A stretch of 64,000 nt of DNA from an uncultured Clostridia bacterium (GTDB taxonomy: Bacteria > Bacillota > Clostridia > TANB77 > CAG-508). A model generated the notes under the pieces. That model worked only from the letters and a program-made list of their open reading frames with translations. It was not told where the DNA came from and searched no databases. This document shows positions 105 to 18,437 of this stretch, in pieces. The position numbers were made by a program, and so were the translations under genes. The stretch spans positions 44 to 64,043 of the forward strand of contig CANRHX010000005.1 in NCBI GenBank assembly GCA_947630545.1, in the 5' to 3' direction. The stretch's first letter is position 1. Every line of letters begins with the position of its first letter.

Positions 105-1517
105 TTAAGCATTCAGCCCTACGATATATAAAATGGGGCGAAATCCATAGTAAGTGCCTATGACGTTTGATAAATGCGCGCGGGCACCCGCACACCAATA
201 ATAATCGGCGTACTGTCCTCCTCGAAAGACATACGGCTCGATGGCGTTACGCTCGTTGATGAAGCTAGAGCGTTCTGTTGTCAATTCTTGCATATTACCT
301 GCCATATCATTTATTTTACATTTCTCATCTCCTCTATCTCCTGTGTTTGAAAGTTTACCTATATCATCTCCTTGATAAGCATAATAATTTCCATCTTTAT
401 CGCATTTCATTATATACACTATCGCTGTATCCCATGCATAACTATTTATTAAATCACTTGTATATATTGTTGTTTCTCCTTTTTTTACATCGTTATATAA
501 ATTTCGTGATTCTTCTTTTGCTTTCTCTATTTCTATACCATTATATACTAATACTCCTGCTTTGCATACTGCTTCATTTTCATTTTCTTTTCCCATTTCA
601 TATCTTCCTATATAATATCCTTTGGCTTTATTCGTTTGGGTTTTGAATTCTTCTATATCCCTTGCTCCTGACTCGTCTGATATTTCTGTAAAATAATCTT
701 CTATAACATCTTTTCCTTCTTTAGGTGCGTCTAAGTCACCCAAAAAATCATATCTTCCTAATTGTATTACTCCCATTTCACCATCATGAAATTTTATTTT
801 TTGCTCTACTGGCACCCATACAAATTGGTTTCCTTTTTTTGTTGAATCTTCACTTGCATCTTCTATTACTATTCCTCCTTCTAATGTATCGGCTGAATCA
901 GTTGCTTGTTTAAAACCAGCTGGGATTACTACTTGTTGCTCCTCTCCTTCGGTTTCCTTTTTTACTATTGTATTTTTTTTTGATGGTAATTCTGCTTTAC
1001 TATTTAGGTCTGCAAATGAATCAACTTCCACCGTTCTTGTTGTAGATGTTTCTTCTCCTGAGTCTCCCGTTGATGCTTTAGTATCACTCCATGTTATTCC
1101 TCCGTTTTCTTCTATTGTTCCTGTTACTGTGTATGATTTTGTGTTTAATGTTATTGTATTATCTGATACTCCTGATGACTCTAACAATTGACTATTTCTT
1201 TTTTCGGCATTTTCTACTGCTCTTCCTGCAGCCTCTTCCACTACTGATTGTGTACTTGCTCCTTCTGTTATATTTCCTTTTACATAGGTATTATTATAAT
1301 AATTTAATAATGCCTCTTGCACCTCCATTGCTATTTCATCTTTTGCTCCTGCTATTGCATCTTTTTGTGCTGCCTCTGTTGCTTTTTGTGGTGCGCTGTT
1401 GTCTCCTGATAACATCGCTATTGTTACTCCTGCAAGGATTAGCAAGACTATTATAGTGATAACAAGTGCTATTAATGTTATTCCTTTATTTTTACATCCT
1501 TTTCCTTTGAAATTCAT
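105..1517 (-). CDS. Pilin-like (prepilin-type N-terminus) protein with C-terminal FGE-sulfatase/SUMF1-like domain
   Basis: ORF 105..1544. Preferred start is the ATG at 1517, preceded by a GGTGGG RBS. The N-terminus MNFKGKGCKNKG|ITLIALVITIIVLLILAGV has a short basic leader ending in Gly followed by about 20 hydrophobic residues, with Ala rather than Glu at +5. The C-terminal part shows FGE-sulfatase hallmarks: FVWVP, IGRYE, YAWDTA, NDMAGNMQE, FRGG, YYGFRP. Confidence 0.6.
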   Translation of the reverse strand: MNFKGKGCKNKGITLIALVITIIVLLILAGVTIAMLSGDNSAPQKATEAAQKDAIAGAKDEIAMEVQEALLNYYNNTYVKGNITEGASTQSVVEEAAGRAVENAEKRNSQLLESSGVSDNTITLNTKSYTVTGTIEENGGITWSDTKASTGDSGEETSTTRTVEVDSFADLNSKAELPSKKNTIVKKETEGEEQQVVIPAGFKQATDSADTLEGGIVIEDASEDSTKKGNQFVWVPVEQKIKFHDGEMGVIQLGRYDFLGDLDAPKEGKDVIEDYFTEISDESGARDIEEFKTQTNKAKGYYIGRYEMGKENENEAVCKAGVLVYNGIEIEKAKEESRNLYNDVKKGETTIYTSDLINSYAWDTAIVYIMKCDKDGNYYAYQGDDIGKLSNTGDRGDEKCKINDMAGNMQELTTERSSFINERNAIEPYVFRGGQYADYYWCAGARAHLSNVIGTYYGFRPILYIVGLNA

Positions 1518-1673
1518 ACTTTTCCCACCTTTCATTTGTACCATTAAGTATTTTACTTAAGGGTTCAAATGAAAGATTACAAAAAAGCTTTTATATCAAT
1601 TGTTTCACACATTTATTTATAATAATAAAACCAAATAATTTTTAAAAAAGTTTTAAAAAATCATAAAAAAATA

Positions 1674-1702
1674 TTGTCAAAAAACTCTTATATTGCTATA
1701 AT
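1674..1702 (+). promoter_or_regulatory. Near-consensus promoter-like hexamers on the plus strand
   Basis: TTGTCA (1674-1679), 17 nt, TATAAT (1697-1702). The only thing downstream is the 1714-1748 hairpin and then antisense of the GGDEF gene. The same bases read TTGACA on the minus strand (1675-1680). Confidence 0.3.
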
Positions 1703-1713
1703 ACGAATTATAG

Positions 1714-1748
1714 AAAAAGTCGTTAAGTAAAATACTTCACGACTTTTT
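1714..1748 (-). terminator. Hairpin terminator after the GGDEF gene (bidirectional shape)
   Basis: Stem aaaaagtcgt/acgacttttt (10 bp) with a 15-nt loop. The A/T runs give a U-tract on both strands. Confidence 0.5.
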
Positions 1749-1792
1749 ATTTATTTTTGTAAATATGCTTGTGTGTGTGCACTACTTGCTCC

Positions 1793-2716
1793 TTATTTTC
1801 TTCTATCTATTGCATAGCTACTACCCATTACAGATTTTGCAGCATGCTTAACTTGAGCACCAATTTCTCCAATTTCCAATATATTGTGGAATCTACCTAA
1901 ATCTGCAACAACAACTCCAATTGAAATTGAAGTAAGAGGAAATTGTTCTATTATTCCCTTTCTATTAGCAACTTCTATATATCCTCTATAATTATCTTCA
2001 TCTGTAAAAAAACTACTAACCTTAGCATCAAAATTTGCAATTATATCTTGGCAAACTTTATCACAATGAATACCTGGTATTATTCCTACAAAATCATCTC
2101 CACCAATATGTCCAACAAAAACATTATCTGACCAATTATTATGCAAAACTTTATAAATTATATCTGCAGTATATACAATTATTTCATCACCTTTTAAAAA
2201 TCCGTAAACATCATTATAAGCCTTAAAATTGTCCAAATCGAAATATAATACAGTAAATGTCTCTCTATTTGATAATCTCTTCTTCAATTCTGCATGTATC
2301 TGTACATTCCCTGGTAACCCTGTAAGAGGGCTTATTCTTCTATTTATTGTAAGCAATCTACTTAAATTTTTTACTGTATAATATAAATATTCTTCATCAA
2401 CTGGTTTTTTTATATAATATTCTATTGACTCTTGCAAAATTTTCATTCTGTGAGATTTCTCTCCATTAGAAGATACCACAATAACAGGAGTTATTGTATT
2501 ATCTTCATCACTTCTTATTTGTTTGCAAAGATTTACTACATCTCTATCTACAGCATCTTCATTAATGATTATAAGTGATGGAATATTTTTTAAAGCTACA
2601 TCAATTTCTTTAGATTTAACATTAATAAATTTATAATCTAAATCATTCTTAAATAATTCTTTAAATACTAATATAGAAGAATCATCATCATCTATTATAT
2701 ATATTTCTTGTTGCAT
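1793..2716 (-). CDS. Response-regulator receiver + GGDEF (diguanylate cyclase-type) protein, variant GGDDF motif
   Basis: The N-terminal receiver has a DDDD acidic pocket, VVSS and KKP. The C-terminal GGDEF domain shows PLTGLPGN, YFDLDNFKAYND and GHIGGDDF. The start overlaps the upstream gene's stop by 1 nt (2716). Confidence 0.8.
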   Translation of the reverse strand: MQQEIYIIDDDDSSILVFKELFKNDLDYKFINVKSKEIDVALKNIPSLIIINEDAVDRDVVNLCKQIRSDEDNTITPVIVVSSNGEKSHRMKILQESIEYYIKKPVDEEYLYYTVKNLSRLLTINRRISPLTGLPGNVQIHAELKKRLSNRETFTVLYFDLDNFKAYNDVYGFLKGDEIIVYTADIIYKVLHNNWSDNVFVGHIGGDDFVGIIPGIHCDKVCQDIIANFDAKVSSFFTDEDNYRGYIEVANRKGIIEQFPLTSISIGVVVADLGRFHNILEIGEIGAQVKHAAKSVMGSSYAIDRRK

Positions 2717-3526
2717 TACTTCCTCCTTTTATCTTTAGTTTTAATTCTTTTTATTTGAACTTTTTTATTTAATATTTCAGTAATTTCTTTTGTATTAAGT
2801 GCAGGGAATGCTTTTTTTAGTCTATATACATATCTATATAACCTTCTCATTATTCTATTTCTTTTAGCTTTAAGTTCTACTAATGCAGTTTTTACATTTT
2901 CTGTAACTTTAGATTTATCAGTTAGCTTATTTTTGCTTTCTTCTTTTATTTCATTTAATTTTTGTTTAATTTGTTCATTTAAATCTTCAATCTTTTTAAG
3001 TTTTATTTTTATATTATTAATTTTTATAACACTTATTATTGCATCAACTATCATAACTGCTAATGATCCAAAAATTATGTTTCTAAATATATCTTCTGGG
3101 ATATTATTTATGCATGAAACAACAAATGGATGAATATAGTTTATAAAACCTACACCTAAAAATCCCCAAGCTATTGAATTAGTTAAACAAATTCTTCCTT
3201 GAAAATTTATTTTATGATCTGAATAATCCCAATATTTCGTTTTAAAAACTTTTTCTAAGAATACTCCCACAATATATTCCCAAAATGTCAAAAGCACTAC
3301 AGAAATAATGAAAGTAATAATTATTTTGCCTTGTAATCGTCCCATTATTAAAAGCATTATAATACTTCCGCACACCATAAATTGGACAAACTGGACCAAT
3401 CAAAAATCCAGTATTTATTATTTTTCTTTCGCAAAACGACCTAAATATTGATTCAAGTATCCAGCCTAAGAAAGAATAAATTACAAAAAAACATACTATA
3501 TTATAAAAACTTATATCCATTTTCAC
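2716..3526 (-). pseudogene. PF06541-like polytopic membrane protein (putative ABC-transporter type IV family), interrupted by a 1-nt frameshift
   Basis: The 94-aa ORF (3242..3526) carries the family N-terminus FFVIYSFLGWILESIF...GPVCPIYG. The family continues in the 227-aa ORF (2716..3399) as GSIIMLLI... in another frame. The frames switch near 3368-3378. Confidence 0.6.
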
Positions 3527-3552
3527 CCTTCTTTATTGCAAGCTCATCATGA

Positions 3553-3574
3553 AAGCCCTCTTTATAGAGGGCTT
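3553..3574 (-). terminator. 9-bp GC-containing hairpin after the Ig-repeat gene
   Basis: AAGCCCTCT-ttat-AGAGGGCTT directly after the stop at 3578. The T tail on the minus strand is weak (TTTCATG). Confidence 0.4.
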
Positions 3575-3577
3575 GTA

Positions 3578-4522
3578 TTATTTTTTCCATACAGCTTTTC
3601 TTGATTTAGATTGAACACCTTGAGAATTATATGCTGTAACTTTTATATAGTTATCGCCTTCTTTTAAAGGAAAATCATATTTAAAATCTTTTCCATCTGC
3701 TTGCATTTTTGTGATTTTTCCATCTGACATTGTCTCTATTTCAACCCTATCTAATGCCACATCATCATGTGCTTTTATTACATAACAATCATTACCTGCT
3801 TCTATTGTTACTGTTGGCATTGTTGAACCTGCAACAGTCTTTTCTGCTTTTTCTTTATTTCCATTAACATCAACAGCCTGTACTTGTAATGTATGTTCTC
3901 CTAGTGAAACATCTAATTCAAATGAATATTCTTTATTATTTACCTCTTTTGTTTGTACTTCTTCATTGTCCCATTTATATGCAACAGTTTTAATTTCATT
4001 ATTTCCAATTAAATCTATTTTTACCTTATTTCCAGATTTTTGTATATCTATACTTATTTCACTTTGTAATGTATAAGTATCTGAAAATACAGTTTCTTCC
4101 CCATTTATATCAGTTGCAATAACAGTAAATGTGTTTTCACCCTTTGGAATATCAATTTTACTTACTTGCATATAAGTTCTTCCATCTCCACTAACTGTTT
4201 GTTCTTCTTCATCATTCCAATGATATACAACTTTATCTATTACTGATGGTTGTGTTGTTGAAATATTAACTATAAGTTGAGTTCCTTCTTTTACTTGTAC
4301 TTCTATTTCAGGTTTTGTTGAAATTTGCTCTTGTTGATTAGAATCTCCACTAGCACTTCCACTATTTTTGTATAAAGCATATGAACTATTGGCTATTAAA
4401 AATACACCAAAAACAATAAGTATTATAGCAAAAAACTTTATTATTGAATTAACATCTTTGCTTCCACCTTTGTTTATATTATGTTTATTATTGACATTTA
4501 CCGTAGATAATATTTGATTCAT
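3578..4522 (-). CDS. Membrane-anchored protein with three Ig-like/FN3-like repeats
   Basis: GGGGGA RBS before the ATG at 4522. One N-terminal TM helix (FFAIILIVFGVFLIANSSY). Three roughly 85-aa repeats follow the pattern (V)xYxW(N)D(E)E...GEN/H T..V.A.D.NG. Confidence 0.6.
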   Translation of the reverse strand: MNQILSTVNVNNKHNINKGGSKDVNSIIKFFAIILIVFGVFLIANSSYALYKNSGSASGDSNQQEQISTKPEIEVQVKEGTQLIVNISTTQPSVIDKVVYHWNDEEEQTVSGDGRTYMQVSKIDIPKGENTFTVIATDINGEETVFSDTYTLQSEISIDIQKSGNKVKIDLIGNNEIKTVAYKWDNEEVQTKEVNNKEYSFELDVSLGEHTLQVQAVDVNGNKEKAEKTVAGSTMPTVTIEAGNDCYVIKAHDDVALDRVEIETMSDGKITKMQADGKDFKYDFPLKEGDNYIKVTAYNSQGVQSKSRKAVWKK

Positions 4523-4552
4523 ATTTCCCCCTTGTTATAACTATTCGAAAAA

Positions 4553-4581
4553 ATTATATCATAAGTATTTTAAAAAGTAAA
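4553..4581 (-). promoter_or_regulatory. Possible extended -10 promoter for the Ig-repeat gene
   Basis: On the minus strand: TTTACT, 17 nt, TGaTATAAT, located between the adhesin stop (4584) and the ATG at 4522. Confidence 0.35.
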
Positions 4582-7500
4582 TCTTATAATACATATTTTT
4601 TAATTAAGAATATTCCTCCTGCTATTATTACTAATATGCCTGTTCCTAACATTATATATGTTGCTTCTATACCTGTTGCTACTGATAACATTACTGGTGC
4701 GTCATCTATATCATCTTCTCCTGGTTTCTTATTGTCTGGTGTTGAATCTTTATCTGGTACTCCCCATTCATTGTAATCTTCTGATATTTCTGCTGTATTT
4801 GTTTTTAATCCTAAATTGTTTGATCCATTTATCCATGTTAATAATACTTCTACATCAGCATATTCTCCTGGTTGTAATAATGTATTTTCTAGTTTTCTTG
4901 TTGATATTACATTATTTCCTTCATCTTTCCAATCTGGATTATCTTTTGCTACAAATTTTAGTCCTTTTGGTATATAATCTGTTACTTCTTTTGCATATCC
5001 TGCTATCTCTCCTTGATTATATACTCTTATTGAATATCTGAATTTTACTGTTACTTTTGATAGTTTCTTTCTATGTAATTCTACTTTTACTACATCTTCT
5101 GGGTCATCCCATGCATCATGTCCTGTTTTTGTTACTTTTGTTTTTCCATCTTCTATTACTATAGCTTCTGTTACCCATTTTCTTAATGCTAAGTCAAATT
5201 CTGGTACTCTTATTTTCTCTATGTCTTGGTCATCTTCTCCTTCATTCCATTCATCTGGTTTTGAGTCTATATCTTCAACTTCATCACCGTTTTCGTCTGT
5301 GTCATCTGATATTTGTGCATAGTTGATTAATATTCTTTTACTTCCATTTGGCTCTGTTACTCTAAATGCTACTTTTATATCTTTATAGTCTGGGTTTGTA
5401 TCTGATATTTCTTTACTTTCATCAAAAGTCTTTAGTAAGTTTGGATTTTCTTCTTCTTCTGATGTCTTTCTTTCTTCTCCTTGTTCTTTTGATAGGTAGT
5501 CTGTTCTTATTATTACTGCTTTGCTTGCATCTTCTGTTTCTATATATTTCTTTACTTCTGAACTTCCATTTACTTTACATTCAATAACTTTTGATTCATC
5601 TTCTACTTCTGTTCCTTCTTTTAGTTCTGTGTACATTACCCATCTGTATTCTTTGTTTGTATCATGCTCTGGTAAAAATTCTACTCCATCTGGAATGTCA
5701 TCTGTTATTACTGATGCGTATCCGTCTATTTGACCTTCATTAAATATTCTTAATGTATATGTTACTACATTTCCATTTACTACATTTACTGGTTCTTTAG
5801 TATGTTCGTAAGTTATTTTTCCATCTGCATATTTTACTTGTGGTACTCTTGTTGTTACATCTTTATCTTCTACTTTTGTTATGAATTTTCTTAATGCTAA
5901 GTCAAAATTTAATGGTTTATTTTCTATTAATCTATTTGTTGTTTCTTTTGACTCTTCTTCTTTTATTAATACTTCTACATCTTCTTTATAAGTACCATTA
6001 TTTATTGTTACTTCTATTGGTTCTTTTATTGTTGCATATCCTTCTGGCGCTTTTGTTTCTACTATCCAATATTTTGTTCCTGGTATTACTCTTGCGTTTG
6101 CTTCTCCTTGTATATATGTTCCATCAGTTTTTTTGTTGCTTTCATTATCTTTTGCATCTTCTCCATATTCTAATCCTACAAATTCTACAAGTCCATTTTC
6201 TCCTGATTTTGCTGTTTGTACTGCATTTGTTTTATTTTCTGCATCTTCCCTTGTTCTATATATTGCAAATTCCGCATCTTTTAATGCTACTTTTTCTCCA
6301 TTAGATTTTTTGTATTTGTATAATGTTATTCCTCCTGTATGTACTTCTGGTATTTCTGATTCTTTATGGTTTTCTCCTGATTCATTTGTATAGTCTAATC
6401 TTGCTTTATTTGGTATTTCTTTTCCTATTATTTCTGCTAATAATTTTCCATCTTTATCTTTTGCGAATGTTGTTTTGAATTTTACTTCTATTATGTTTCC
6501 ACCATTTTCTTTTATTTTATCAGAAATTATTTGTTCTTCGCTTATAAATGTTAGTTTTAATGTTCCTGAATATTTATTTCCTAATATATCTGATATTGCA
6601 TCTGGTTGTTCTGTATTTTGAGTATATGTTACTTTATAGTCTGTATTTTCTGTTAATTCTGCTACTTTTGTTCCTTTTTTGTCTATAATATTTACTGATA
6701 TTATTCCTTCATATACTAATCTATAGTCTATATCATCTACAATTTCGTATTTTTTATAGTTTGCTATATTTGATGGTAGACTAGAATTTATTACCCATTC
6801 ATGTGGTTTATTTACATCATCATCATATCCTGAATCTTGGTTTTCAACTTCTTTTACACCTTTGTGTATTTCTGGTTCATCATAAATAATTATTTTTTCA
6901 AAGTCATCATCATCTTGTTGTCCTTCAAAGTATTCATCAGGATTTGTCCAATCTTTGTCATCATTACCTTCTCCAATATAACCTTTACTTGGACTATCTG
7001 TAACTAAATCTTCTTCTTGTGGATGTTCACTTGGCTTTGAGTCTATATCTGTTACACCACTCTCATTGTAATCTTCAGAAATCCATGCTATATTTGTATA
7101 TATTTTGTCTCCACCTTCTTTTGCATTTGCTGTTACTTGACATTTAATTGTTACTGTTTCACTATTTAAGGTATTTCCATCATAAGCTGTTATTGTTCCT
7201 TGATTATCTTTTCTTGTTAATATTAATGTATTTGTACTTTCTGTATAAGAATCTAGTTTATATTTTGAATTATCTTCATCATCTATTGCAATGAATTTAA
7301 GTCCTGATGGCAATGTATCTGTTATTGTTTTTGCATATCCATCTATACCACCTTCGTTATATACAGTTAAACTATAATATACAAAATATCCTGGTTTTAC
7401 AACTACTGGATCTTTTCTATGATCATATGTTGCTGTTGTTGTTTCACTTTCTATTGTTGATTCGTCAATATCTGGTGTTCTTGATAGATTTGGAAGTTCT

Positions 7501-8150
7501 ACACCTTCTCCTTGTTCGTCTTCAACTTTTGTTATATATTTTCTTAATGCTAAATCGAATACTTGTAAATCTTCAAAGTCATCATCATCTTGTTCTCCAA
7601 GTCCTTCTTCTGGTTTCTTTGGACTATATTTGTCTGTATCTATATCTTCTGGCTGTGAATCTTCATCTACTTTATTTCCACTTTTGTCTTCTGCTTCTGT
7701 TATTGCTGCAATATTTTTTAAATTATTTGATGTTGCTTTGTTATTTACTACACATTCTACTAATAAATCTTTATAATATTCTTCTTCGTTTAATTTTGTA
7801 TAATCTCTATTTGCTGCTTTTATTATTGTATCTGCTAAATATCTTGTTGTTATTGTCTTTCCATCACTTGTCCATCCATATTGACTATTTATTGTACTTT
7901 CTTCTTTTAAGTCTAATCCTTCTGGTAAATAGTCTGTTACTTCTTTTGCATATCCGTCTATTTTTCCTTCATTATATACTCTTATTGTATATACTACTGT
8001 ATCTCCTCTTGATACTGATACTTTATTTTTTGGATGTTTTTTCTCTGCTGTTGTTGATTCTCCTTCTATTGAACTTTCACCTATTTGTGGTATTCTATTT
8101 TCTATGTTTTTATCTCCTATTTTTGTTATGAATTTTCTTAATGCTAAATC
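4575..8150. repeat. Copy 1 of a ~3.5 kb direct repeat (offset 8296 bp)
   Basis: Compared by eye with 12871..16446. Mismatches occur only at 4630 and 4640, then none found until 7964. Divergence increases over 7964-8150 and similarity is lost beyond 8150. Confidence 0.9.
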
Positions 8151-11100: not shown

Positions 11101-12581
11101 GTTTGTGATTTTTCAGCATCTAATGCTTTACTTATCCATGCTATATTTGTTAAAATTTTATACTCTGTTTCATCTGGTTGTTCTGTAACATCACAAACAA
11201 CATATACTGTTGTTGAATCTGGATTTCCAGTTCCACTATATGCATTTAATTCTCTATCGTTTGCTGTTATAGTTAATAAATTAGTTGAACTATTACAATT
11301 AAATGTATATTTTGAATTATCATTCTGTTTTGCAGTTTCTGCCTGATTATATTGTAATCCTGCTGGTAGTTGATCTTTTATTTCTGTTGCTTTTCCTTTT
11401 TTATCACCCTCATTATATATTGTTATTGCGTATGTTACTTTATCTCCTTTTTTTACGACTATTGGATCTTTTTTATGTTTATATGTTGCAGTTTTTGCAC
11501 TTCCATCTTTTAATTTTGTACTATCTACATTAGGCATTCTATTACCTGATGTTGTATAGTTTGTTGTTGCTCCATTTGATGTTACTGAAGATATATATTT
11601 TCTTAATGCTAAGTCAAATTCCTTTTTTCCTGGTTCTATTTCTATTACTGGTTGTGATTTTGTGTTGTCAATTTCACTTTTATCTTTAGCAACATTTGCG
11701 TTTGTATATAAATATACTGTATTTGTACTTACATAATTTCCATTTTTAGCATTTGCTGCATTTGTTTTTGCTTGTCTTACTAAATATTTATAAAGTTGTT
11801 TTGCCATATTGTTTCGATAAGCTCCATTGCCGTTGCTGGATAAATCTATATATCTATCTGTATTTGATGTTGTTCTATAATACAAGAATGAAACTTTCTC
11901 ATTGTTTACATCTGAATCATCATCCCAACTTGTATTGTCATCAACATTTAATCTTACATCGTCATTTGTAAAATACCATAGTGCTACTTGTTGCACTGCT
12001 CTTACTTCATTTGGAGTTATTATACGGTCAGATGAATATGTTTTTAATTCATCATAACTATAACCATCATCATATAATGCATAATAATTATGTCCGTTAT
12101 ATGTATATTCTTTTTCATATAATGATTTTATATATGCTTGAAATTCTGCAGAATCTTTATCAGAATCTCCTAGGTAAAACAAATCTGCTAGTGCTAGTAT
12201 TTGATTATAATTTGATGTATACATACCTAACCCATTAATTAATAATTTATCATTATCATTGGACATATTGTATTTATTAGTATAAATATCTTTGTATTTT
12301 GCAGTTCCAGATAATGCTGTTCTGTTTTCAAACCCAACATTAGCCATACCACAATATGCATTTATTTTTCTCTTTCCACTTTCATCACCAATTTGTGTAA
12401 TTGCATAATTATCATAACTTAATGCATACTCTGGGTTAGTCTCATTTACATATGTTGATGAATTAGCATTTAATTCCATCAATGTTATATTAACAGTATC
12501 TACTGCCAATGAATTTTGAGCAGATAATGCCATTAATATTAGTGCACTTATTATACTTAAAATAATTCTTTTGATTTTCAT
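4584..12581 (-). CDS. Giant cell-surface adhesin (2665 aa): signal peptide, putative thioester domain, 7 DUF11-like repeats, 2 pilin-type isopeptide-like domains, 2 CnaB-like domains, C-terminal hydrophobic anchor
   Basis: AAGGAGAGAGG RBS. Signal peptide MKIKRIILSIISALILMALSAQNSLA. YCGMANVGF and VQQVALWYFTN resemble the thioester Cys and TQxA(I/V)W Gln motifs. There are seven FDLALRK...VYNEG.IDGYA...D.LP.GL units. Other modules are EPEIHKGVK...IPNKA.L.YTNE, and GGITLYKYKK...YWIVETKAPEGY. The C-terminus is SVATG + hydrophobic stretch + KKYVL. Confidence 0.85.
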   Translation of the reverse strand: MKIKRIILSIISALILMALSAQNSLAVDTVNITLMELNANSSTYVNETNPEYALSYDNYAITQIGDESGKRKINAYCGMANVGFENRTALSGTAKYKDIYTNKYNMSNDNDKLLINGLGMYTSNYNQILALADLFYLGDSDKDSAEFQAYIKSLYEKEYTYNGHNYYALYDDGYSYDELKTYSSDRIITPNEVRAVQQVALWYFTNDDVRLNVDDNTSWDDDSDVNNEKVSFLYYRTTSNTDRYIDLSSNGNGAYRNNMAKQLYKYLVRQAKTNAANAKNGNYVSTNTVYLYTNANVAKDKSEIDNTKSQPVIEIEPGKKEFDLALRKYISSVTSNGATTNYTTSGNRMPNVDSTKLKDGSAKTATYKHKKDPIVVKKGDKVTYAITIYNEGDKKGKATEIKDQLPAGLQYNQAETAKQNDNSKYTFNCNSSTNLLTITANDRELNAYSGTGNPDSTTVYVVCDVTEQPDETEYKILTNIAWISKALDAEKSQTSDNPYSGSIIGHDRDSAPGDYPKNGSSDYTKEDLRTTNSLGYTGKTNYTSETDLSDATKYYEGQQDDDDFEKVKVMPKRGSYDIYIVKQDAEGKNLSSKAKFSVKGPGDTAEKEKEVTGELKFTGETPVKINASNVNTPDVYTIKEIQAPDKYCKFDGTITVTVNKAEDDSKYYASSVTYDVKDSSGSSIKSEEKVKVELKDGNLYVYVKNYQFDLALRKYITQINGSDIKTSRKPSIAEDEKNKLATDTATYDDGTTLAKTHTKTPLEVAKGDKVTYAIEIYNEGEIDGYATEVTDYLPDGLDFLPSDPTNINNGWTQDTHDPKKITTNKLAEEGKLLSAFNKSTKELDSEILYIVCQVNDKATSSNLKNIAEITETKDSKKKDVEDRDSTPNDVHKDNYTPEAPTGGKGEQDDDDFEDLKIVEFDLALRKYITKIEDEKGTNVAVPNIQRTPEIDNETIKSITTTATYKHRKDPVVVKPGYFVYYKLTVYNEGDIDGYAKTITDKLPTGLQFIKIEDENTSKYTASYTDTTNTLVLTRKDSQGTITAYDGNTLHSETVTIKCKVTADAEEGADKIYTNIAWISQDYNEKNVNDRDSQPDTHPQENKLVTDIPNNGYIGNNNTDKDLKNPELYFEGQQDDDDFEKIVIYKEPEIHKGVKTVTNQDSGYDDNDDNQIDTNEPHEWVINSSLPLNIADYKKYEIVDDIDYRLEYKGIISVNIINNEGKQVAELEKGTDYKETYTQNTNNTTATSSILGNKYSGTLRLTFIGEGQQISQKLKENAGNIIEVKFKTIFAKDSSGKLLAEVLGKEIPNKAKLEYTNESNEEKEDISEKPEVHTGGITLYKYKKSNGTKVGLKDAEFAIYKTEQDAQKRQNALRVAKSGEDGLVEFVGLEYGEDAKNSPDNLQSDGTYIQGRENAREIPGTTYWIVETKAPEGYETKQDIIEVTIDNDSYKEDINVLIKEEESKASTNRLIENIPTDFDLALRKFITKIGDKNIENRIPQIGESSIEGESTTAEKKHPKNKVSVSRGDTVVYTIRVYNEGKIDGYAKEVTDYLPEGLDLKEESTINSQYGWTSDGKTITTRYLADTIIKAANRDYTKLNEEEYYKDLLVECVVNNKATSNNLKNIAAITEAEDKSGNKVDEDSQPEDIDTDKYSPKKPEEGLGEQDDDDFEDLQVFDLALRKYITKVEDEQGEGVELPNLSRTPDIDESTIESETTTATYDHRKDPVVVKPGYFVYYSLTVYNEGGIDGYAKTITDTLPSGLKFIAIDDEDNSKYKLDSYTESTNTLILTRKDNQGTITAYDGNTLNSETVTIKCQVTANAKEGGDKIYTNIAWISEDYNESGVTDIDSKPSEHPQEEDLVTDSPSKGYIGEGNDDKDWTNPDEYFEGQQDDDDFEKIIIYDEPEIHKGVKEVENQDSGYDDDVNKPHEWVINSSLPSNIANYKKYEIVDDIDYRLVYEGIISVNIIDKKGTKVAELTENTDYKVTYTQNTEQPDAISDILGNKYSGTLKLTFISEEQIISDKIKENGGNIIEVKFKTTFAKDKDGKLLAEIIGKEIPNKARLDYTNESGENHKESEIPEVHTGGITLYKYKKSNGEKVALKDAEFAIYRTREDAENKTNAVQTAKSGENGLVEFVGLEYGEDAKDNESNKKTDGTYIQGEANARVIPGTKYWIVETKAPEGYATIKEPIEVTINNGTYKEDVEVLIKEEESKETTNRLIENKPLNFDLALRKFITKVEDKDVTTRVPQVKYADGKITYEHTKEPVNVVNGNVVTYTLRIFNEGQIDGYASVITDDIPDGVEFLPEHDTNKEYRWVMYTELKEGTEVEDESKVIECKVNGSSEVKKYIETEDASKAVIIRTDYLSKEQGEERKTSEEEENPNLLKTFDESKEISDTNPDYKDIKVAFRVTEPNGSKRILINYAQISDDTDENGDEVEDIDSKPDEWNEGEDDQDIEKIRVPEFDLALRKWVTEAIVIEDGKTKVTKTGHDAWDDPEDVVKVELHRKKLSKVTVKFRYSIRVYNQGEIAGYAKEVTDYIPKGLKFVAKDNPDWKDEGNNVISTRKLENTLLQPGEYADVEVLLTWINGSNNLGLKTNTAEISEDYNEWGVPDKDSTPDNKKPGEDDIDDAPVMLSVATGIEATYIMLGTGILVIIAGGIFLIKKYVL
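5906..10460. repeat. Internal tandem duplication (~2.25-2.3 kb x2) of a four-domain module inside the 2665-aa gene
   Basis: Module order is DUF11-DUF11-pilin-like-CnaB, at about 8151-10460 and again at about 5906-8150. The last three domains are highly similar (e.g. RKDPVVVKPGYFVYY, EPEIHKGVK, GGITLYKYKKSNG). The first DUF11 unit is much more diverged. Confidence 0.75.
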
Positions 12582-12621
12582 GACCTCTCTCCTTAAATCT
12601 ATATTGTATTCTCCTATATTT

Positions 12622-12649
12622 ATTTTATCGTATTTTTTTATAAAGTCAA
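12622..12649 (-). promoter_or_regulatory. Sigma-A-type promoter of the 2665-aa adhesin gene
   Basis: On the minus strand: TTGACT (12644-12649), 16 nt, TAAAAT (12622-12627), about 40 nt upstream of the RBS. The same hexamers and spacing occur upstream of the paralog. Confidence 0.6.
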
Positions 12650-12712
12650 TGCCTTATTTTTACAGTATTTTAAACACTATTTTTTTCTTTTAGGGAAATA
12701 TATATTCATCTT

Positions 12713-12755
12713 ATAATATAAAAAATCACCTTACATTACAATTGTATTATATTTT
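12713..12755 (-). promoter_or_regulatory. Conserved upstream block (copy 1) 64 nt beyond the -35 of the adhesin promoter
   Basis: ataatataaaaaatcaccttacattacaattgtattatatttt is very similar to 18260-18301. It contains the perfect 10-bp palindrome tacaattgta and promoter-like hexamers. Confidence 0.4.
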
Positions 12756-12838
12756 AGTAATATACTTGTAATAATAAGGTATTCATTATTATTTTACAAA
12801 TTAAAATGATTAAATCCGTAGGTTTTGCTATCTTATTG

Positions 12839-12874
12839 AAAAAAAAACGGGAACTAAGTTTCCTTAATTCCCGC
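12839..12874 (-). terminator. Intrinsic terminator after the 1744-aa adhesin gene
   Basis: The minus strand reads GCGGGAAttaaggaaacttagTTCCCGC-like hairpin (CGGGAA/TTCCCG stem) followed by a 9-T run (plus-strand A-run 12839-12847). It lies immediately after the stop at 12880. Confidence 0.7.
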
Positions 12875-15800
12875 AAATTTTATAACACATATTTTTTAAT
12901 TAAGAATATTCCTCCTGCTATTATTGCTAATATGCTTGTTCCTAACATTATATATGTTGCTTCTATACCTGTTGCTACTGATAACATTACTGGTGCGTCA
13001 TCTATATCATCTTCTCCTGGTTTCTTATTGTCTGGTGTTGAATCTTTATCTGGTACTCCCCATTCATTGTAATCTTCTGATATTTCTGCTGTATTTGTTT
13101 TTAATCCTAAATTGTTTGATCCATTTATCCATGTTAATAATACTTCTACATCAGCATATTCTCCTGGTTGTAATAATGTATTTTCTAGTTTTCTTGTTGA
13201 TATTACATTATTTCCTTCATCTTTCCAATCTGGATTATCTTTTGCTACAAATTTTAGTCCTTTTGGTATATAATCTGTTACTTCTTTTGCATATCCTGCT
13301 ATCTCTCCTTGATTATATACTCTTATTGAATATCTGAATTTTACTGTTACTTTTGATAGTTTCTTTCTATGTAATTCTACTTTTACTACATCTTCTGGGT
13401 CATCCCATGCATCATGTCCTGTTTTTGTTACTTTTGTTTTTCCATCTTCTATTACTATAGCTTCTGTTACCCATTTTCTTAATGCTAAGTCAAATTCTGG
13501 TACTCTTATTTTCTCTATGTCTTGGTCATCTTCTCCTTCATTCCATTCATCTGGTTTTGAGTCTATATCTTCAACTTCATCACCGTTTTCGTCTGTGTCA
13601 TCTGATATTTGTGCATAGTTGATTAATATTCTTTTACTTCCATTTGGCTCTGTTACTCTAAATGCTACTTTTATATCTTTATAGTCTGGGTTTGTATCTG
13701 ATATTTCTTTACTTTCATCAAAAGTCTTTAGTAAGTTTGGATTTTCTTCTTCTTCTGATGTCTTTCTTTCTTCTCCTTGTTCTTTTGATAGGTAGTCTGT
13801 TCTTATTATTACTGCTTTGCTTGCATCTTCTGTTTCTATATATTTCTTTACTTCTGAACTTCCATTTACTTTACATTCAATAACTTTTGATTCATCTTCT
13901 ACTTCTGTTCCTTCTTTTAGTTCTGTGTACATTACCCATCTGTATTCTTTGTTTGTATCATGCTCTGGTAAAAATTCTACTCCATCTGGAATGTCATCTG
14001 TTATTACTGATGCGTATCCGTCTATTTGACCTTCATTAAATATTCTTAATGTATATGTTACTACATTTCCATTTACTACATTTACTGGTTCTTTAGTATG
14101 TTCGTAAGTTATTTTTCCATCTGCATATTTTACTTGTGGTACTCTTGTTGTTACATCTTTATCTTCTACTTTTGTTATGAATTTTCTTAATGCTAAGTCA
14201 AAATTTAATGGTTTATTTTCTATTAATCTATTTGTTGTTTCTTTTGACTCTTCTTCTTTTATTAATACTTCTACATCTTCTTTATAAGTACCATTATTTA
14301 TTGTTACTTCTATTGGTTCTTTTATTGTTGCATATCCTTCTGGCGCTTTTGTTTCTACTATCCAATATTTTGTTCCTGGTATTACTCTTGCGTTTGCTTC
14401 TCCTTGTATATATGTTCCATCAGTTTTTTTGTTGCTTTCATTATCTTTTGCATCTTCTCCATATTCTAATCCTACAAATTCTACAAGTCCATTTTCTCCT
14501 GATTTTGCTGTTTGTACTGCATTTGTTTTATTTTCTGCATCTTCCCTTGTTCTATATATTGCAAATTCCGCATCTTTTAATGCTACTTTTTCTCCATTAG
14601 ATTTTTTGTATTTGTATAATGTTATTCCTCCTGTATGTACTTCTGGTATTTCTGATTCTTTATGGTTTTCTCCTGATTCATTTGTATAGTCTAATCTTGC
14701 TTTATTTGGTATTTCTTTTCCTATTATTTCTGCTAATAATTTTCCATCTTTATCTTTTGCGAATGTTGTTTTGAATTTTACTTCTATTATGTTTCCACCA
14801 TTTTCTTTTATTTTATCAGAAATTATTTGTTCTTCGCTTATAAATGTTAGTTTTAATGTTCCTGAATATTTATTTCCTAATATATCTGATATTGCATCTG
14901 GTTGTTCTGTATTTTGAGTATATGTTACTTTATAGTCTGTATTTTCTGTTAATTCTGCTACTTTTGTTCCTTTTTTGTCTATAATATTTACTGATATTAT
15001 TCCTTCATATACTAATCTATAGTCTATATCATCTACAATTTCGTATTTTTTATAGTTTGCTATATTTGATGGTAGACTAGAATTTATTACCCATTCATGT
15101 GGTTTATTTACATCATCATCATATCCTGAATCTTGGTTTTCAACTTCTTTTACACCTTTGTGTATTTCTGGTTCATCATAAATAATTATTTTTTCAAAGT
15201 CATCATCATCTTGTTGTCCTTCAAAGTATTCATCAGGATTTGTCCAATCTTTGTCATCATTACCTTCTCCAATATAACCTTTACTTGGACTATCTGTAAC
15301 TAAATCTTCTTCTTGTGGATGTTCACTTGGCTTTGAGTCTATATCTGTTACACCACTCTCATTGTAATCTTCAGAAATCCATGCTATATTTGTATATATT
15401 TTGTCTCCACCTTCTTTTGCATTTGCTGTTACTTGACATTTAATTGTTACTGTTTCACTATTTAAGGTATTTCCATCATAAGCTGTTATTGTTCCTTGAT
15501 TATCTTTTCTTGTTAATATTAATGTATTTGTACTTTCTGTATAAGAATCTAGTTTATATTTTGAATTATCTTCATCATCTATTGCAATGAATTTAAGTCC
15601 TGATGGCAATGTATCTGTTATTGTTTTTGCATATCCATCTATACCACCTTCGTTATATACAGTTAAACTATAATATACAAAATATCCTGGTTTTACAACT
15701 ACTGGATCTTTTCTATGATCATATGTTGCTGTTGTTGTTTCACTTTCTATTGTTGATTCGTCAATATCTGGTGTTCTTGATAGATTTGGAAGTTCTACAC

Positions 15801-16446
15801 CTTCTCCTTGTTCGTCTTCAACTTTTGTTATATATTTTCTTAATGCTAAATCGAATACTTGTAAATCTTCAAAGTCATCATCATCTTGTTCTCCAAGTCC
15901 TTCTTCTGGTTTCTTTGGACTATATTTGTCTGTATCTATATCTTCTGGCTGTGAATCTTCATCTACTTTATTTCCACTTTTGTCTTCTGCTTCTGTTATT
16001 GCTGCAATATTTTTTAAATTATTTGATGTTGCTTTGTTATTTACTACACATTCTACTAATAAATCTTTATAATATTCTTCTTCGTTTAATTTTGTATAAT
16101 CTCTATTTGCTGCTTTTATTATTGTATCTGCTAAATATCTTGTTGTTATTGTCTTTCCATCACTTGTCCATCCATATTGACTATTTATTGTACTTTCTTC
16201 TTTTAAGTCTAATCCTTCTGGTAAATAGTCTGTTACTTCTTTTGCATATCCGTCTATTTGTCCTTCATTATATACTCTTATTGTATATACTACTGTATCT
16301 CCCCTTGATACGGATACTTTATTTTTTGGATGTTTCTTCTCTGCTGTTGTTGTTTCTCCTTCTACTGCACTTCCACCAATTTGTGGCATTCTATCTTCTA
16401 TGTTTTTATCTCCTATTTTTGTTATGAATTTTCTTAATGCTAAATC
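12871..16446. repeat. Copy 2 of the ~3.5 kb direct repeat
   Basis: Same as above. The antisense ORFs in the track (e.g. 5366/13662, 5521/13817, 5894/14190, 6133/14429) translate identically. Confidence 0.9.
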
Positions 16447-18114
16447 CATTTTTTTAGGTTTTAATACTAGTTTTTCAAAGTCGTCATCATCTTCTTGTCC
16501 TTCATAATAGTAGTCTGAATCTGCTGGTGTAACTTCTTGATTTGTTTCTTTTCCTTTATAGCTTTCCATACTATCTTTATTTACTTGTGGTGTTGTCCCT
16601 GGTGCAGAATCTCTATCATATTTTGTATCAGGTCCTTTTTCAGTTCCAGTATATTTTTCTCCTGTTGAATCATTATAAGCTTCACTTATCCATGCTACAT
16701 TTGTTAATATTTTGTCTGTATCTGTATTTGCATGTGCTGTTACTGTACAAACTACTTGTACACTTGTTTTATCTAGTGTTCCATCATTATTATATTTATT
16801 TAGATTATTTAAAGCTTGTTTTTCTGATATTGTTACTTTATTATTGGCTGAATCATAGTTAAATGTATAATTATCATTATCTCCATGTAAATTTACTGTT
16901 GCTGATTGATCAAACTCCAATCCTGTAGGCAATTGGTCTACTATTTGTGTTGCTCTACCATTTACATCGCCTTCATTATATACTGTTAATGTATATATTA
17001 CTTCATCTCCTTCATTTACTGTAACTGGATCTTTTTTATGTTTGTATTCTGCAGTTGTACTTTCTCCATTATCTAGTTTTGTTGTTACTATGTTAGGATT
17101 TCTATCATTTATATTTGTATTTCCTACTTTTGTTATATATTTTCTTAATGCTAAGTCAAATTCTTTTTTACCAGGTTCTATTTCTATTACTGGTTGTGAT
17201 TTTGTTGTTTCAGTTGTTTTTTTAGCTATTGTTCCATTTGTATATAAATATACTGTATTTGTGCTTTCATAATTTCCATTTGTAACATTTTTAGCATTTG
17301 TTTTTGCTTGTCTTATTAAATATTTATATAGTTGCTTTGCCATATTATTTTGGTAATCCCCATCAGTTCCTGTACCTGTTGATAAACTTTTATAACTATT
17401 TTGATTTTGTTGATAATCTGCATGTGTTCTATAATATAAAAATGCGGCTTTAGAATTATTTTCAGATGTATCTGAATCATCATCAACATTTAAATATTTT
17501 CTATCAGGATTTGTAAAATACCATAGTGCAACTTGTTGTACTGCTCTTACTTGGTTAGGAGTTATTATACGACCAGGCTTAAACTGTTTTAATTGTTCAT
17601 ATGTATATTCTTCGGCTTCATGTAATACATAATAATGTTTTCCATTATATGTATATTGTTTATCAAATAATGGTTTTATATATGCTTCAAATTCTGTATC
17701 AGAACTTCCTAAATAAAATAAATCTGCTAGTGCTAATATTTCATCATAATTTTCTAGATACATTCCTTCGTTTTGAATAGTTTGTTTTTCTGTTGACATA
17801 TTGTATTTAGTTTTATAAATATCTTGATATTTATTATTAGTTTCAGAATAGTTAGTCCTATTTTCGAACCCTACTCCTGCCATAGCACAATATGCATTTG
17901 GTCTTCTTTCTCCATTACTATTTGCAATTTGTGTAATTCCTAAGTCAGTACTATTTAATCCGAATTCAGGATTATCATCATTAACATTTGCAGAATTTGC
18001 ATTTAATTCCATTAATGTTAATTCAATATTTTCAACAGCAAATACATTTTGTGCAAATACTGCTACTAATATTAATGCGCTTAACATTGTTAAAATAATT
18101 CTTTTAATTTTCAT
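12880..18114 (-). CDS. Giant cell-surface adhesin paralog (1744 aa), same architecture with 5 DUF11-like repeats
   Basis: Signal peptide MKIKRIILTMLSALILVAVFAQNVFA. YCAMAGVGF and VQQVALWYFTN motifs. Five FDLALRK units. The C-terminal part, about 1100 aa, is amino-acid identical to the 2665-aa protein. Confidence 0.85.
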   Translation of the reverse strand: MKIKRIILTMLSALILVAVFAQNVFAVENIELTLMELNANSANVNDDNPEFGLNSTDLGITQIANSNGERRPNAYCAMAGVGFENRTNYSETNNKYQDIYKTKYNMSTEKQTIQNEGMYLENYDEILALADLFYLGSSDTEFEAYIKPLFDKQYTYNGKHYYVLHEAEEYTYEQLKQFKPGRIITPNQVRAVQQVALWYFTNPDRKYLNVDDDSDTSENNSKAAFLYYRTHADYQQNQNSYKSLSTGTGTDGDYQNNMAKQLYKYLIRQAKTNAKNVTNGNYESTNTVYLYTNGTIAKKTTETTKSQPVIEIEPGKKEFDLALRKYITKVGNTNINDRNPNIVTTKLDNGESTTAEYKHKKDPVTVNEGDEVIYTLTVYNEGDVNGRATQIVDQLPTGLEFDQSATVNLHGDNDNYTFNYDSANNKVTISEKQALNNLNKYNNDGTLDKTSVQVVCTVTAHANTDTDKILTNVAWISEAYNDSTGEKYTGTEKGPDTKYDRDSAPGTTPQVNKDSMESYKGKETNQEVTPADSDYYYEGQEDDDDFEKLVLKPKKMDLALRKFITKIGDKNIEDRMPQIGGSAVEGETTTAEKKHPKNKVSVSRGDTVVYTIRVYNEGQIDGYAKEVTDYLPEGLDLKEESTINSQYGWTSDGKTITTRYLADTIIKAANRDYTKLNEEEYYKDLLVECVVNNKATSNNLKNIAAITEAEDKSGNKVDEDSQPEDIDTDKYSPKKPEEGLGEQDDDDFEDLQVFDLALRKYITKVEDEQGEGVELPNLSRTPDIDESTIESETTTATYDHRKDPVVVKPGYFVYYSLTVYNEGGIDGYAKTITDTLPSGLKFIAIDDEDNSKYKLDSYTESTNTLILTRKDNQGTITAYDGNTLNSETVTIKCQVTANAKEGGDKIYTNIAWISEDYNESGVTDIDSKPSEHPQEEDLVTDSPSKGYIGEGNDDKDWTNPDEYFEGQQDDDDFEKIIIYDEPEIHKGVKEVENQDSGYDDDVNKPHEWVINSSLPSNIANYKKYEIVDDIDYRLVYEGIISVNIIDKKGTKVAELTENTDYKVTYTQNTEQPDAISDILGNKYSGTLKLTFISEEQIISDKIKENGGNIIEVKFKTTFAKDKDGKLLAEIIGKEIPNKARLDYTNESGENHKESEIPEVHTGGITLYKYKKSNGEKVALKDAEFAIYRTREDAENKTNAVQTAKSGENGLVEFVGLEYGEDAKDNESNKKTDGTYIQGEANARVIPGTKYWIVETKAPEGYATIKEPIEVTINNGTYKEDVEVLIKEEESKETTNRLIENKPLNFDLALRKFITKVEDKDVTTRVPQVKYADGKITYEHTKEPVNVVNGNVVTYTLRIFNEGQIDGYASVITDDIPDGVEFLPEHDTNKEYRWVMYTELKEGTEVEDESKVIECKVNGSSEVKKYIETEDASKAVIIRTDYLSKEQGEERKTSEEEENPNLLKTFDESKEISDTNPDYKDIKVAFRVTEPNGSKRILINYAQISDDTDENGDEVEDIDSKPDEWNEGEDDQDIEKIRVPEFDLALRKWVTEAIVIEDGKTKVTKTGHDAWDDPEDVVKVELHRKKLSKVTVKFRYSIRVYNQGEIAGYAKEVTDYIPKGLKFVAKDNPDWKDEGNNVISTRKLENTLLQPGEYADVEVLLTWINGSNNLGLKTNTAEISEDYNEWGVPDKDSTPDNKKPGEDDIDDAPVMLSVATGIEATYIMLGTSILAIIAGGIFLIKKYVL

Positions 18115-18157
18115 TTTTTCTCTCCTTCACCTTATAAAATGGTATATTTCTATATAT

Positions 18158-18185
18158 ATTTTACTCATTTTTTTTATAAAGTCAA
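18158..18185 (-). promoter_or_regulatory. Sigma-A-type promoter of the 1744-aa adhesin gene
   Basis: On the minus strand: TTGACT (18180-18185), 16 nt, TAAAAT (18158-18163). The surrounding block tttataaagtcaatgccttatttt is conserved with 12634-12660. Confidence 0.6.
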
Positions 18186-18259
18186 TGCCTTATTTTTTAA
18201 AGTTTTCTACCAATTTATTATGGTCTTTCTTTCGCCTACGGAAGTATATTTTTAATCTG

Positions 18260-18301
18260 TAATATAAAAATACACCCTACATTACAATTATATTACATTT
18301 T
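18260..18301 (-). promoter_or_regulatory. Conserved upstream block (copy 2)
   Basis: taatataaaaatacaccctacattacaattatattacatttt, about 75 nt beyond the -35 hexamer. Confidence 0.4.
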
Positions 18302-18437
18302 CGTGACAAAATCAAGGCTTTATGCGAATTTCGTGTATATTTATTAATCTTCCCCAATTTTCCCTAATCTTTTTGACACAATATAATTTTATCATAATTA
18401 GATTTTATAAAAATATATTTAAAATAAAGGTGATTCT

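Follow-up and report, generated by a model that had tools for sequence, protein, structure and literature searches.

A contig assembled from a rabbit-gut metagenome (GenBank CANRHX010000005.1, assembly GCA_947630545.1) supplied the 64,000 nucleotides (nt) analysed here, positions 44 to 64,043 of the contig, which we call the window and in whose own coordinates all features are given. Near one end it carries a run of minus-strand genes encoding two long adhesins, two membrane proteins, a protein with a receiver-like and a GGDEF-type domain, and a pilin-like surface protein. We propose, with a probability of about 0.6, that these genes form a chromosomal surface-protein locus, passed on vertically, in which three separable units lie side by side: a tandem pair of thioester-type (TIE) adhesins; a triad of genes for an immunoglobulin (Ig)-repeat protein, a CmpB-like protein and a receiver-like protein whose cyclase motif reads GGDDF; and a variable slot. 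The organism is an uncultured low-G+C gut Clostridium, with relatives that include Clostridium sp. CAG:440 and CAG:343. Direct observation of this DNA and its relatives covers the structures of the genes, their domains and motifs, synteny and the duplication; from these we infer thioester chemistry, cyclase activity, its mode of control and any crosstalk between the adhesins and the triad.

Gene order and chromosomal setting

Six minus-strand genes run head to tail from 105 to 18114, separated by short gaps. In order of position they encode the pilin-like anchored surface protein (105-1544, 479 amino acids), the receiver-like plus GGDEF-type protein (1793-2716, 307 amino acids), a polytopic CmpB-like membrane protein of family PF06541 (2716-3526), the Ig-repeat membrane protein (3578-4522, 314 amino acids), adhesin A (4584-12581, 2665 amino acids) and adhesin B (12880-18114, 1744 amino acids). 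A preliminary description of this DNA had counted seven co-oriented minus-strand genes; strand and orientation stand, but the number falls to six because two of its open reading frames (ORFs), 2716-3399 and 3242-3526, together make up a single PF06541 gene. Its housekeeping boundary at 18.4 kb is borne out. A divergent gene for a dacB-type D-Ala-D-Ala carboxypeptidase (18438-19697, plus strand; Pfam Peptidase_S11, 1.7e-67) forms the syntenic boundary of the locus, keeping its position in relatives, and beyond it follow plsX, tuf, fusA, rpsG and rpsL. The end first given for the locus, 18301, falls inside the promoter block of adhesin B (18275-18315).

The same genes had been described as an adhesion island. 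We reject a genomic or mobile island, because G+C across the locus (0.26-0.33) has the values of the flanks, no tRNA gene occurs in the 64-kb window, and the plsX-acpP-dacB flank is common to the relatives. The assembly itself is reproduced by independent Logan contigs from four runs of the same rabbit-gut sample, in the CmpB region, at the junction of the tandem adhesins and in the depth over their stalks.

The Ig-CmpB-GGDDF triad and its neighbours

In a scan of one genome per GTDB species, 363 proteins related to the GGDEF protein came up, and the 80 best loci were retained; the hits include the two Clostridium species named above and metagenome-assembled genomes from goat, rabbit, chicken and human gut. 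The Ig, CmpB-like and GGDEF genes are adjacent in essentially all of these 80 loci that are long enough to judge. Across the loci the GGDEF protein is 75-90% identical to that of the window, the CmpB-like protein 42-73% and the Ig-repeat protein 32-61%, and the ratio of nonsynonymous to synonymous substitution rates (dN/dS) between the window and related locus L001 is 0.10 for the first and 0.55 for the last, with the CmpB-like protein between them at 0.27. In 33 of the 58 species that could be judged, the end of an adhesin gene lies no more than 600 nt upstream of the Ig gene, and in 18 species the gene upstream of the triad is ssb. In a neighbour-joining tree of the concatenated triad proteins, in whose species set the adhesin adjoins the triad in 41 of 66 cases, the species without an adjacent adhesin fall in essentially one subclade of about 25, so that the adjacency looks ancestral and broken once, as far as a weak, midpoint-rooted tree can tell. 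Of 14 metagenome adhesins whose contigs reach far enough downstream to judge, 6 have no triad after them.

Since triad adjacency is near-universal, while one subclade has no adhesin beside the triad and some metagenome adhesins have no triad after them, the triad is the robust unit and the adhesin a long-standing but dispensable neighbour. The constant partners of the GGDEF gene are thus the Ig and CmpB-like genes and not the adhesins with which it had been paired. Of the gene set proposed as co-conserved, the order adhesin-Ig-CmpB-GGDEF does recur in the 33 of 58, or 41 of 66, species; the pilin-like gene adjoins the GGDEF gene in few relatives only.

An adjacency so old and so widely retained weighs against a strict separation of adhesins and triad, and for that reason a functional link between them stays conceivable. 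Such a link would be closest if the genes formed one integrated adhesion unit, with cyclic di-guanosine monophosphate (c-di-GMP) made locally by the receiver-GGDEF protein and governing, as it does in Clostridioides difficile, whether the adjacent adhesins are expressed or displayed on the surface. Gene order kept across deep divergence, the common orientation of all genes and the short gaps between them speak for this; against it stand the subclade of about 25 species in which the triad occurs without an adhesin and the adhesin operator described below, which is absent from triad loci that have no adjacent adhesin. Weighed together with the promoters and the receiver, treated in later sections, this explanation appears unlikely to us.

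A CwlD-like Amidase_3 gene lies within 10 kb after the GGDEF gene in 43 of 54 loci, and in a more distant clade of Clostridia that has no Ig, CmpB or adhesin genes Amidase_3 also follows a receiver-GGDDF gene whose product is 45% identical to that of the window. It might be argued from this that the triad serves spore or cell-envelope biogenesis and that its place beside the adhesins is incidental gene order, since it sits between dacB and the Amidase_3 gene, M23 and M50 (SpoIVFA/B-like) genes follow it in close relatives and the organism encodes SpoIVA. Amidase_3 and dacB-type genes are, however, common envelope genes, no sporulation-sigma promoter pattern was seen in a comparison made by eye only, and the literature searched gives no sporulation link for PF06541 or for the GGDDF subfamily; we regard this account of the triad as improbable and retain the reading of three separable units.

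The Ig-repeat protein has a short cytoplasmic N-terminus, one hydrophobic helix and then about three Ig-like repeats, with Pfam matches to Glucodextran_B (3.6e-9) and Big_13 (1.2e-5) that agree with its earlier identification as an Ig-repeat membrane protein. Between its gene and the CmpB-like gene, at 3553-3574, a perfect 9-bp palindromic hairpin (AAGCCCTCT-TTAT-AGAGGGCTT) has no T-run on the coding strand, and may act as an incomplete terminator or serve to stabilise RNA.

The CmpB-like protein ends in a conserved basic tail, and its stop codon overlaps the start of the GGDEF gene. Its two ORFs match PF06541 at 8.8e-30 and 4.3e-15 and are separated by a 1-nt insertion, a C at 3370 (within 3364-3379), which makes a rare CGG codon. 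The identical extra C is present in loci L001-3 (in L001 at 9320-9370), whose GGDEF proteins are 89% identical to that of the window, and the gene is intact in all other relatives where the site was found; contigs of this region from independent runs show no indel. Because the 217 codons past the insertion have stayed open in both lineages under purifying selection (the dN/dS of 0.27 between window and L001 is reached at a dS of about 0.6), the distal part appears still to be expressed, which suggests that it is made either by +1 frameshifting at the CGG codon or from an ATG in overlapping TAT-GGN codons. A search of the literature brought up no functional data on PF06541 or CmpB.

The receiver-GGDDF protein

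The protein at 1793-2716 had been called a receiver-GGDEF protein, and both folds are present: PF00990 GGDEF is matched at E 6.1e-15 (55.8 bits, cutoff 23.8) and PF00072 Response_reg at E 3.1e-8 (34.2 bits, cutoff 30.2). The key residues are another matter. At the phospho-acceptor position stands Asn52 (2561-2563), invariant in 12 clade members, and not an aspartate, and the cyclase motif is GGDDF (2090-2104), again invariant in the clade, and not GG[DE]EF. In alignment with PleD, Asn52 pairs with D53; the window receiver also aligns to the second, adaptor receiver of PleD, which likewise has Asn there.

With PleD, WspR and DgcR the window protein shares the architecture of a receiver joined to a GGDEF fold, and also the metal-binding Asp (DLD), the Asn of LTGLxxN and the Lys in the C-terminal helix. 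It is unlike them in its GGDDF motif, in having an Asn for the phospho-acceptor, and in the constant pairing of its gene in this clade with those for the Ig and CmpB-like membrane proteins. Two further differences weigh against reading it as a cyclase: there is no RxxD I-site upstream of GGDDF, and no conserved acidic residue at the position of the guanine-binding Asp of PleD, D344; of the guanine-binding pair N335/D344 of PleD, only the Asn is retained, in LPGN.

A HMMER search found at least 915 clusters (at 50% identity) that match the full length at E <= 1e-30. Among the best 150 representatives of this subfamily (P0241-P0390), 134 carry GGDDF and none GGDEF or GGEEF, so that GGDDF is not a one-off degeneration. 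The members also share the motifs LTGLPGN, DLDNFKAYND, NRKG and K..AK...GSSY, and distant ones keep the acceptor Asp, one of these being encoded directly upstream of a CHASE2-PAS histidine kinase gene. No solved structure and no specific family model belongs to the subfamily. Another of its loci is L087 (6001-7011).

GSU1937 of Geobacter sulfurreducens has the same GGDDF variant of the active site and is the one enzyme of that kind reported to be active, as a cyclic-dinucleotide synthase in vivo (PMC8835794). It belongs to the Hypr type, spans the membrane and carries the Ser348 marker; its architecture is unrelated to that of the receiver-GGDDF proteins. In close relatives of the window an intact gene for an HD-GYP phosphodiesterase, with HD, HHE and GYP motifs, lies 5-6 kb past the GGDEF gene (L001 16046-17008, minus strand; L005 18058-19005); a counterpart in the window organism would precede the window start. 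Given the shared subfamily motifs, the activity of GSU1937 and the HD-GYP gene near by in relatives, catalysis by the GGDDF protein is plausible. Unit 2, a clade-wide core module, would then most likely be a membrane-tethered nucleotide-second-messenger cyclase. Since its pseudo-receiver has lost the acceptor Asp, control would probably come not from phosphorylation but from contact with other proteins, of which the CmpB-like protein, through its conserved cytoplasmic tail, is one candidate.

The activity of a GGDDF enzyme elsewhere and the HD-GYP gene in relatives can also be counted in favour of the integrated unit outlined above, whereas a receiver that cannot be phosphorylated at the canonical site counts against it. 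A more elaborate proposal, which we hold to be quite improbable, is that the receiver-GGDDF proteins make up a widespread cyclase subfamily of their own, with a product that is perhaps a messenger other than or besides c-di-GMP, and that the member in this clade has lost phospho-control, is membrane-tethered with the Ig and CmpB-like proteins and acts on the adhesins through an operator-binding regulator.

The thioester-type adhesins

Adhesins A and B follow a common plan: a Sec-type signal peptide (18037-18114 in adhesin B), an N-terminal domain of about 295 amino acids, a modular stalk and a C-terminal signal. The stalk of adhesin A holds seven modules of CLIPPER type, each starting FDLALRK, with two SpaA-type modules interspersed; that of adhesin B (13018-17160) holds five and one. 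Pfam CLIPPER/DUF11 is matched at 3.4e-41 in adhesin A, over seven stretches, and at 2.9e-27 in adhesin B, SpaA at 3.4e-26 and 1.5e-11, and the NCBIfam isopeptide-pilin model NF033902 at 205.8 and 114.7 bits (cutoff 95). RrgB_K2N_iso_D2 matches the adhesin stalk at 3.4e-31, and the stalks are thus of the isopeptide, Ig-like kind. Recent work has shown that CLIPPER, which resembles CnaA, serves fibrillar adhesins as an isopeptide domain of the stalk (PMC12617251).

The N-terminal domains lie at about 11619-12503 in adhesin A and about 17161-18036 in adhesin B. Thioester domains (TEDs) are marked by three motifs, [YFL]C-Phi-zeta with the bond-forming Cys, TQXX-Phi-W, and a C-terminal Phi-Q-zeta-Phi-Phi with the bond-forming Gln (PMC6194298). 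We aligned 31 sequences, 29 of them orthologous N-domains taken from related genomes, and found Y76, C77, Q197, Q198, W202 and P311 invariant and Q310 nearly so. Y76-C77, Q197-Q198...W202 and Q310 correspond to the three motifs, the last as SQPVIEI directly before the first CLIPPER module. Pfam TED (PF08341) is matched by 27 of the 31 domains (best E 3.9e-8), and a profile of the alignment run against the PDB gave three matches only, all of them thioester proteins: 5dcq and Cpa (2xi9/4bug).

Some results point the other way. The window TEDs themselves reach only E 0.0057 against PF08341, under the gathering score, and an AlphaFold2 model of the TED from a two-sequence input had a mean confidence (pLDDT) of 35 and was unusable. 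A homologue search with the TED region of the window was empty at E <= 1e-3, and a direct PDB sequence search gave nothing useful. On the strength of motifs kept in orthologues, of the Pfam matches and of the PDB profile matches we nevertheless accept both proteins as thioester-type adhesins, an assignment made in the preliminary description and now well supported by homology. A thioester between Cys77 and the candidate bond-forming Gln310 is the predicted chemistry, and covalent binding of a target its presumed consequence.

Known TIE proteins such as SfbI, Cpa, CpTIE and BaTIE (PMC4450167, PMC6194298) likewise begin with a signal peptide and an N-terminal thioester domain, have the [YFL]C, TQXX-Phi-W-like and C-terminal Gln motifs, and continue into a long isopeptide-type Ig-like stalk and a C-terminal tripartite anchor signal. 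The window adhesins are unlike them in that their stalks consist mostly of CLIPPER (DUF11) modules, their anchor motif is LS[IV]xTG and not LPXTG, their TEDs have diverged below the Pfam threshold, and they form a tandem pair with near-identical stalks and a near-invariant upstream operator.

Near-identical stalks and a probable recent duplication

The 3' parts of the adhesin genes are almost the same sequence: 4579-8150 and 12875-16446 (minus strand) align by blastn over 3572 nt without gaps at 99.58% identity, with 15 mismatches, and the last 1190 amino acids of the two proteins differ at 11 positions. The N-terminal parts with their upstream regions (11125-12758 against 16679-18304) share only 72% nucleotide identity, and the two TEDs 63% protein identity. 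Adhesin A contains in addition an internal tandem duplication of 2.4 kb (5677-8011 against 7909-10288, 79% identity), which adds a CLIPPER-CLIPPER-SpaA super-repeat. A junction contig spanning 11634-12916, from the 5' region of adhesin A to the 3' end of adhesin B, has no differences from the window, and depth in the Logan contigs is about twofold over the repeated stalk. Some relatives, L011 and L048 among them, have adhesins in tandem as well.

This pattern points to a recent tandem duplication or gene conversion of stalk and anchor, which would leave near-identical stalks beneath two diverged "warheads". The simplest reading would be two binding specificities on a shared stalk homogenised by gene conversion. 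Unit 1 would be two paralogous, Sec-exported fibrillar adhesins, each carrying on an isopeptide stalk a TED predicted to bind its target covalently.

Promoters and a proposed near-invariant operator

A promoter scan upstream of adhesin B found a distal promoter/operator block (18275-18315, on the minus strand like all the elements that follow) with the hexamers TTGATT-17-TATAAT and the direct repeats TGTAAT-ATAAT-TGTAAT, the two TGTAAT copies being 11 nt apart; its 21-nt core, AAAATGTAATATAATTGTAAT, occupies 18281-18301. The box CTTCCGTAGG (18235-18244), of the family pattern TYCCSTAR, follows the distal -10 hexamer at a distance of about 45 nt, and its C89, C90 and A93 are invariant in the alignment of upstream regions. 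A proximal promoter-like site, TTGACT-16-TAAAAT (18158-18185), lies about 45 nt upstream of the ATG, and most aligned upstream regions have a -35-like hexamer TTGAC[TA] some 45-75 nt upstream of the ATG. The upstream region of adhesin A (12622-12755) repeats this arrangement, with a copy of the proximal site (12622-12649), the box TTTCCCTAAAAG (12687-12698) and a degenerate copy of the operator (12729-12755), which has 2 mismatches in the 21-mer and has lost the -35 hexamer. Between the two genes an intrinsic terminator follows adhesin B (12847-12874, a 12-bp stem and then a T8 run). Each adhesin gene would by these signs have its own sigma-70-like promoter, and the separate promoter and strong terminator of adhesin B argue against an integrated unit.

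The operator 21-mer recurs exactly in the loci of 18 different related species, in each case ahead of the adhesin gene that comes first; in L001 the block lies at 2242. The window has 2 matches where 0.14 are expected. A metagenome scan gave 80 operator-bearing loci (L090-L169), in which 55 of 65 downstream ORFs, starting at most about 500 nt past the operator and typically some 170-200 nt, match the TED profile. Conservation of the operator thus far exceeds that of the coding sequence, the TEDs being 27-40% identical.

Whether the conserved block marks a leader RNA or a new kind of riboswitch was considered, and the idea rejected: RNAalifold finds no conserved pairing in the adhesin leader, and a TAGGG/CCSTA inverted repeat shows no compensatory change. 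Nothing in the window matches Rfam at the gathering score or at E <= 5, seven related loci also have no match, and no c-di-GMP riboswitch (GEMM-I/II) was found in the window or in these seven. Because neither conserved pairing nor an Rfam match was found, we read the block as a promoter with a protein-binding operator; its near-invariance would imply a conserved DNA-binding regulator rather than a riboswitch. Compared by eye only, the consensus sequences for sporulation sigma factors, CodY, cre and Spo0A do not fit it.

These results bear on the analogy with C. difficile that underlay the preliminary description. There the sortase substrates CD2831 and CD3246 are reportedly regulated by c-di-GMP, through c-di-GMP-II riboswitches and the protease ZmpI (Peltier et al. 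2015). That system resembles the window in having cyclic-dinucleotide genes in the genome, but the locus studied here has no c-di-GMP riboswitch, and no ZmpI-like protease is among the neighbouring genes examined, in a survey that did not search for ZmpI specifically. With Asn at the acceptor position and GGDDF as the cyclase motif, local c-di-GMP control of the C. difficile kind finds no support here. That neither a riboswitch nor a conserved leader structure was found counts against the integrated unit; in its favour, the invariant operator could be the target of a messenger-responsive transcription factor.

Anchoring of the adhesins

The C-terminal signal lies at 4587-4721 in adhesin A and 12883-13017 in adhesin B, and consists of DDAPVMLSVATG, in which the motif is LSVATG, a hydrophobic helix and KKYVL. 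Across species the form LS[IV]xTG is strongly conserved, far more so than the remainder of the adhesin. By the analogy with C. difficile the adhesins would be sortase-anchored; they have no LPxTG, and in the 64-kb window, to which the search extended, there is no TLxTC sortase signature, so that sortase anchoring finds no support here. The LS[IV]xTG motif with helix and KK tail would be either a membrane anchor or a variant sortase signal. In C. difficile, CD2831 and CD3246 are likewise clostridial surface adhesins with non-LPXTG signals ((S/P)PxTG or NVQTG-like).

A signal so much more conserved than the protein it ends, the want of both LPXTG and a sortase signature in the 64 kb, and a polytopic membrane protein directly downstream in most species could together suggest that the Ig and CmpB-like proteins are a dedicated sorting or anchoring system for the adhesin signal DDAPV-LS[IV]xTG-helix-KK. 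Dedicated exosortase and rhombosortase pairs offer an analogue. Yet no catalytic motif or homology ties PF06541 to sorting enzymes, the XrtG-like match of the Ig protein is insignificant (E 0.07), the triad persists without an adjacent adhesin, and the 6 of 14 metagenome adhesins mentioned above are not followed by it. We give this idea very little credence and continue to treat adhesins and triad as separable units.

The variable slot and the pilin-like protein

The gene at 105-1544 encodes an N-terminal KG|ITLIALV... helix (1404-1490), with Ala in place of the pilin Glu at +5, then a helical stalk and a beta-rich head (108-1049). It had been described as a pilin-like protein with a formylglycine-generating enzyme (FGE) domain. 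The head does carry weak motifs of the FGE-sulfatase superfamily (DMxGN, RGG, GFRP), and of 48 homologues 35 match PF03781 FGE-sulfatase weakly (best E 1.5e-7) and 45 match N_methyl weakly. The window protein, however, matches no Pfam family at E <= 0.01 and PF03781 not even at E <= 1; N_methyl is reached at E 0.015. In the PDB, where a direct sequence search gave nothing useful, a profile of the family matched the N-termini of pilins at 5.5e-4 and PorK/GldK, over its C-terminal end, at 0.012. No conserved Cys follows RGG, and hence the catalytic Cys pair of FGE is missing. An AlphaFold2 model with pLDDT 80 had no significant Foldseek match in the PDB or BFVD, FGE included, and trivial matches only in PHROGs. 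We therefore reject an FGE enzyme, on the three grounds that the window protein has no PF03781 match, no catalytic Cys pair and no FGE fold match. Even a superfamily-like head is a reading against which it counts that the profile matches are weak and have no fold support.

Among FGE-sulfatase superfamily proteins the nearest comparison is with GldK/PorK of type IX secretion, which have no FGE activity and show weak profile similarity over RGG...GFRP, and homologues of the window protein have the DMxGNxxEW motif. Unlike proteins of that superfamily, the window protein has neither the Cys pair nor a Pfam or fold match, and its head is fused to a pilin-like helix and helical stalk.

The family is very large, with 7685 relatives, and paralogues that differ in their heads share an N-terminal module at about 80% identity. 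Over 1269-1902 the metagenome depth is about 55-60x against about 5x in the flanks, with a 1-nt length variant at 1713, and this roughly tenfold excess indicates that the N-terminal module and the intergenic DNA are multi-copy or present in many genomes of the sample. The gene adjoins the GGDEF gene in few relatives (L004-6, L008 and L051); it is a variable-slot gene outside the conserved set, and insertions appear to favour this place behind the GGDEF gene. Unit 3 would thus be a slot filled here by one member of a very large family of pilin-like anchored proteins with a putatively non-catalytic, FGE-superfamily-like head. In L004 a mobilisable element (12751-14931; HTH_36, NikA/MobC-like, relaxase) stands just downstream of the pilin-like gene.

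Other genes of the window

Elsewhere the window encodes SpoIVA (37736-39214) and an M23 peptidase (39256-40224), by which we take the organism to be a spore-former, and a Replic_Relax-family ORF (44251-45189) that may be left over from an integrated element. Two adjacent minus-strand ORFs, 26216-27103 (295 amino acids) and 27176-28318 (380 amino acids), have no Pfam matches; they lie between rpsL and a gene of the GidA family (PF01134).

Significance

Thioester (covalent) adhesins are known mainly from pathogens, and here they form a duplicated, conserved and promoter-marked family in a large group of uncultured gut Clostridia, where they are candidates for the attachment of small-genome commensals to mucus, food particles or other cells. 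The invariant 21-nt operator provides a direct handle on the regulator of these adhesins. The GGDDF subfamily, in which a textbook active-site motif is systematically altered, is a cheap and well-defined target for enzymology, and the uncharacterised Ig-CmpB-GGDDF module to which its member in this clade belongs ranks with the best-conserved genes that were sampled there.

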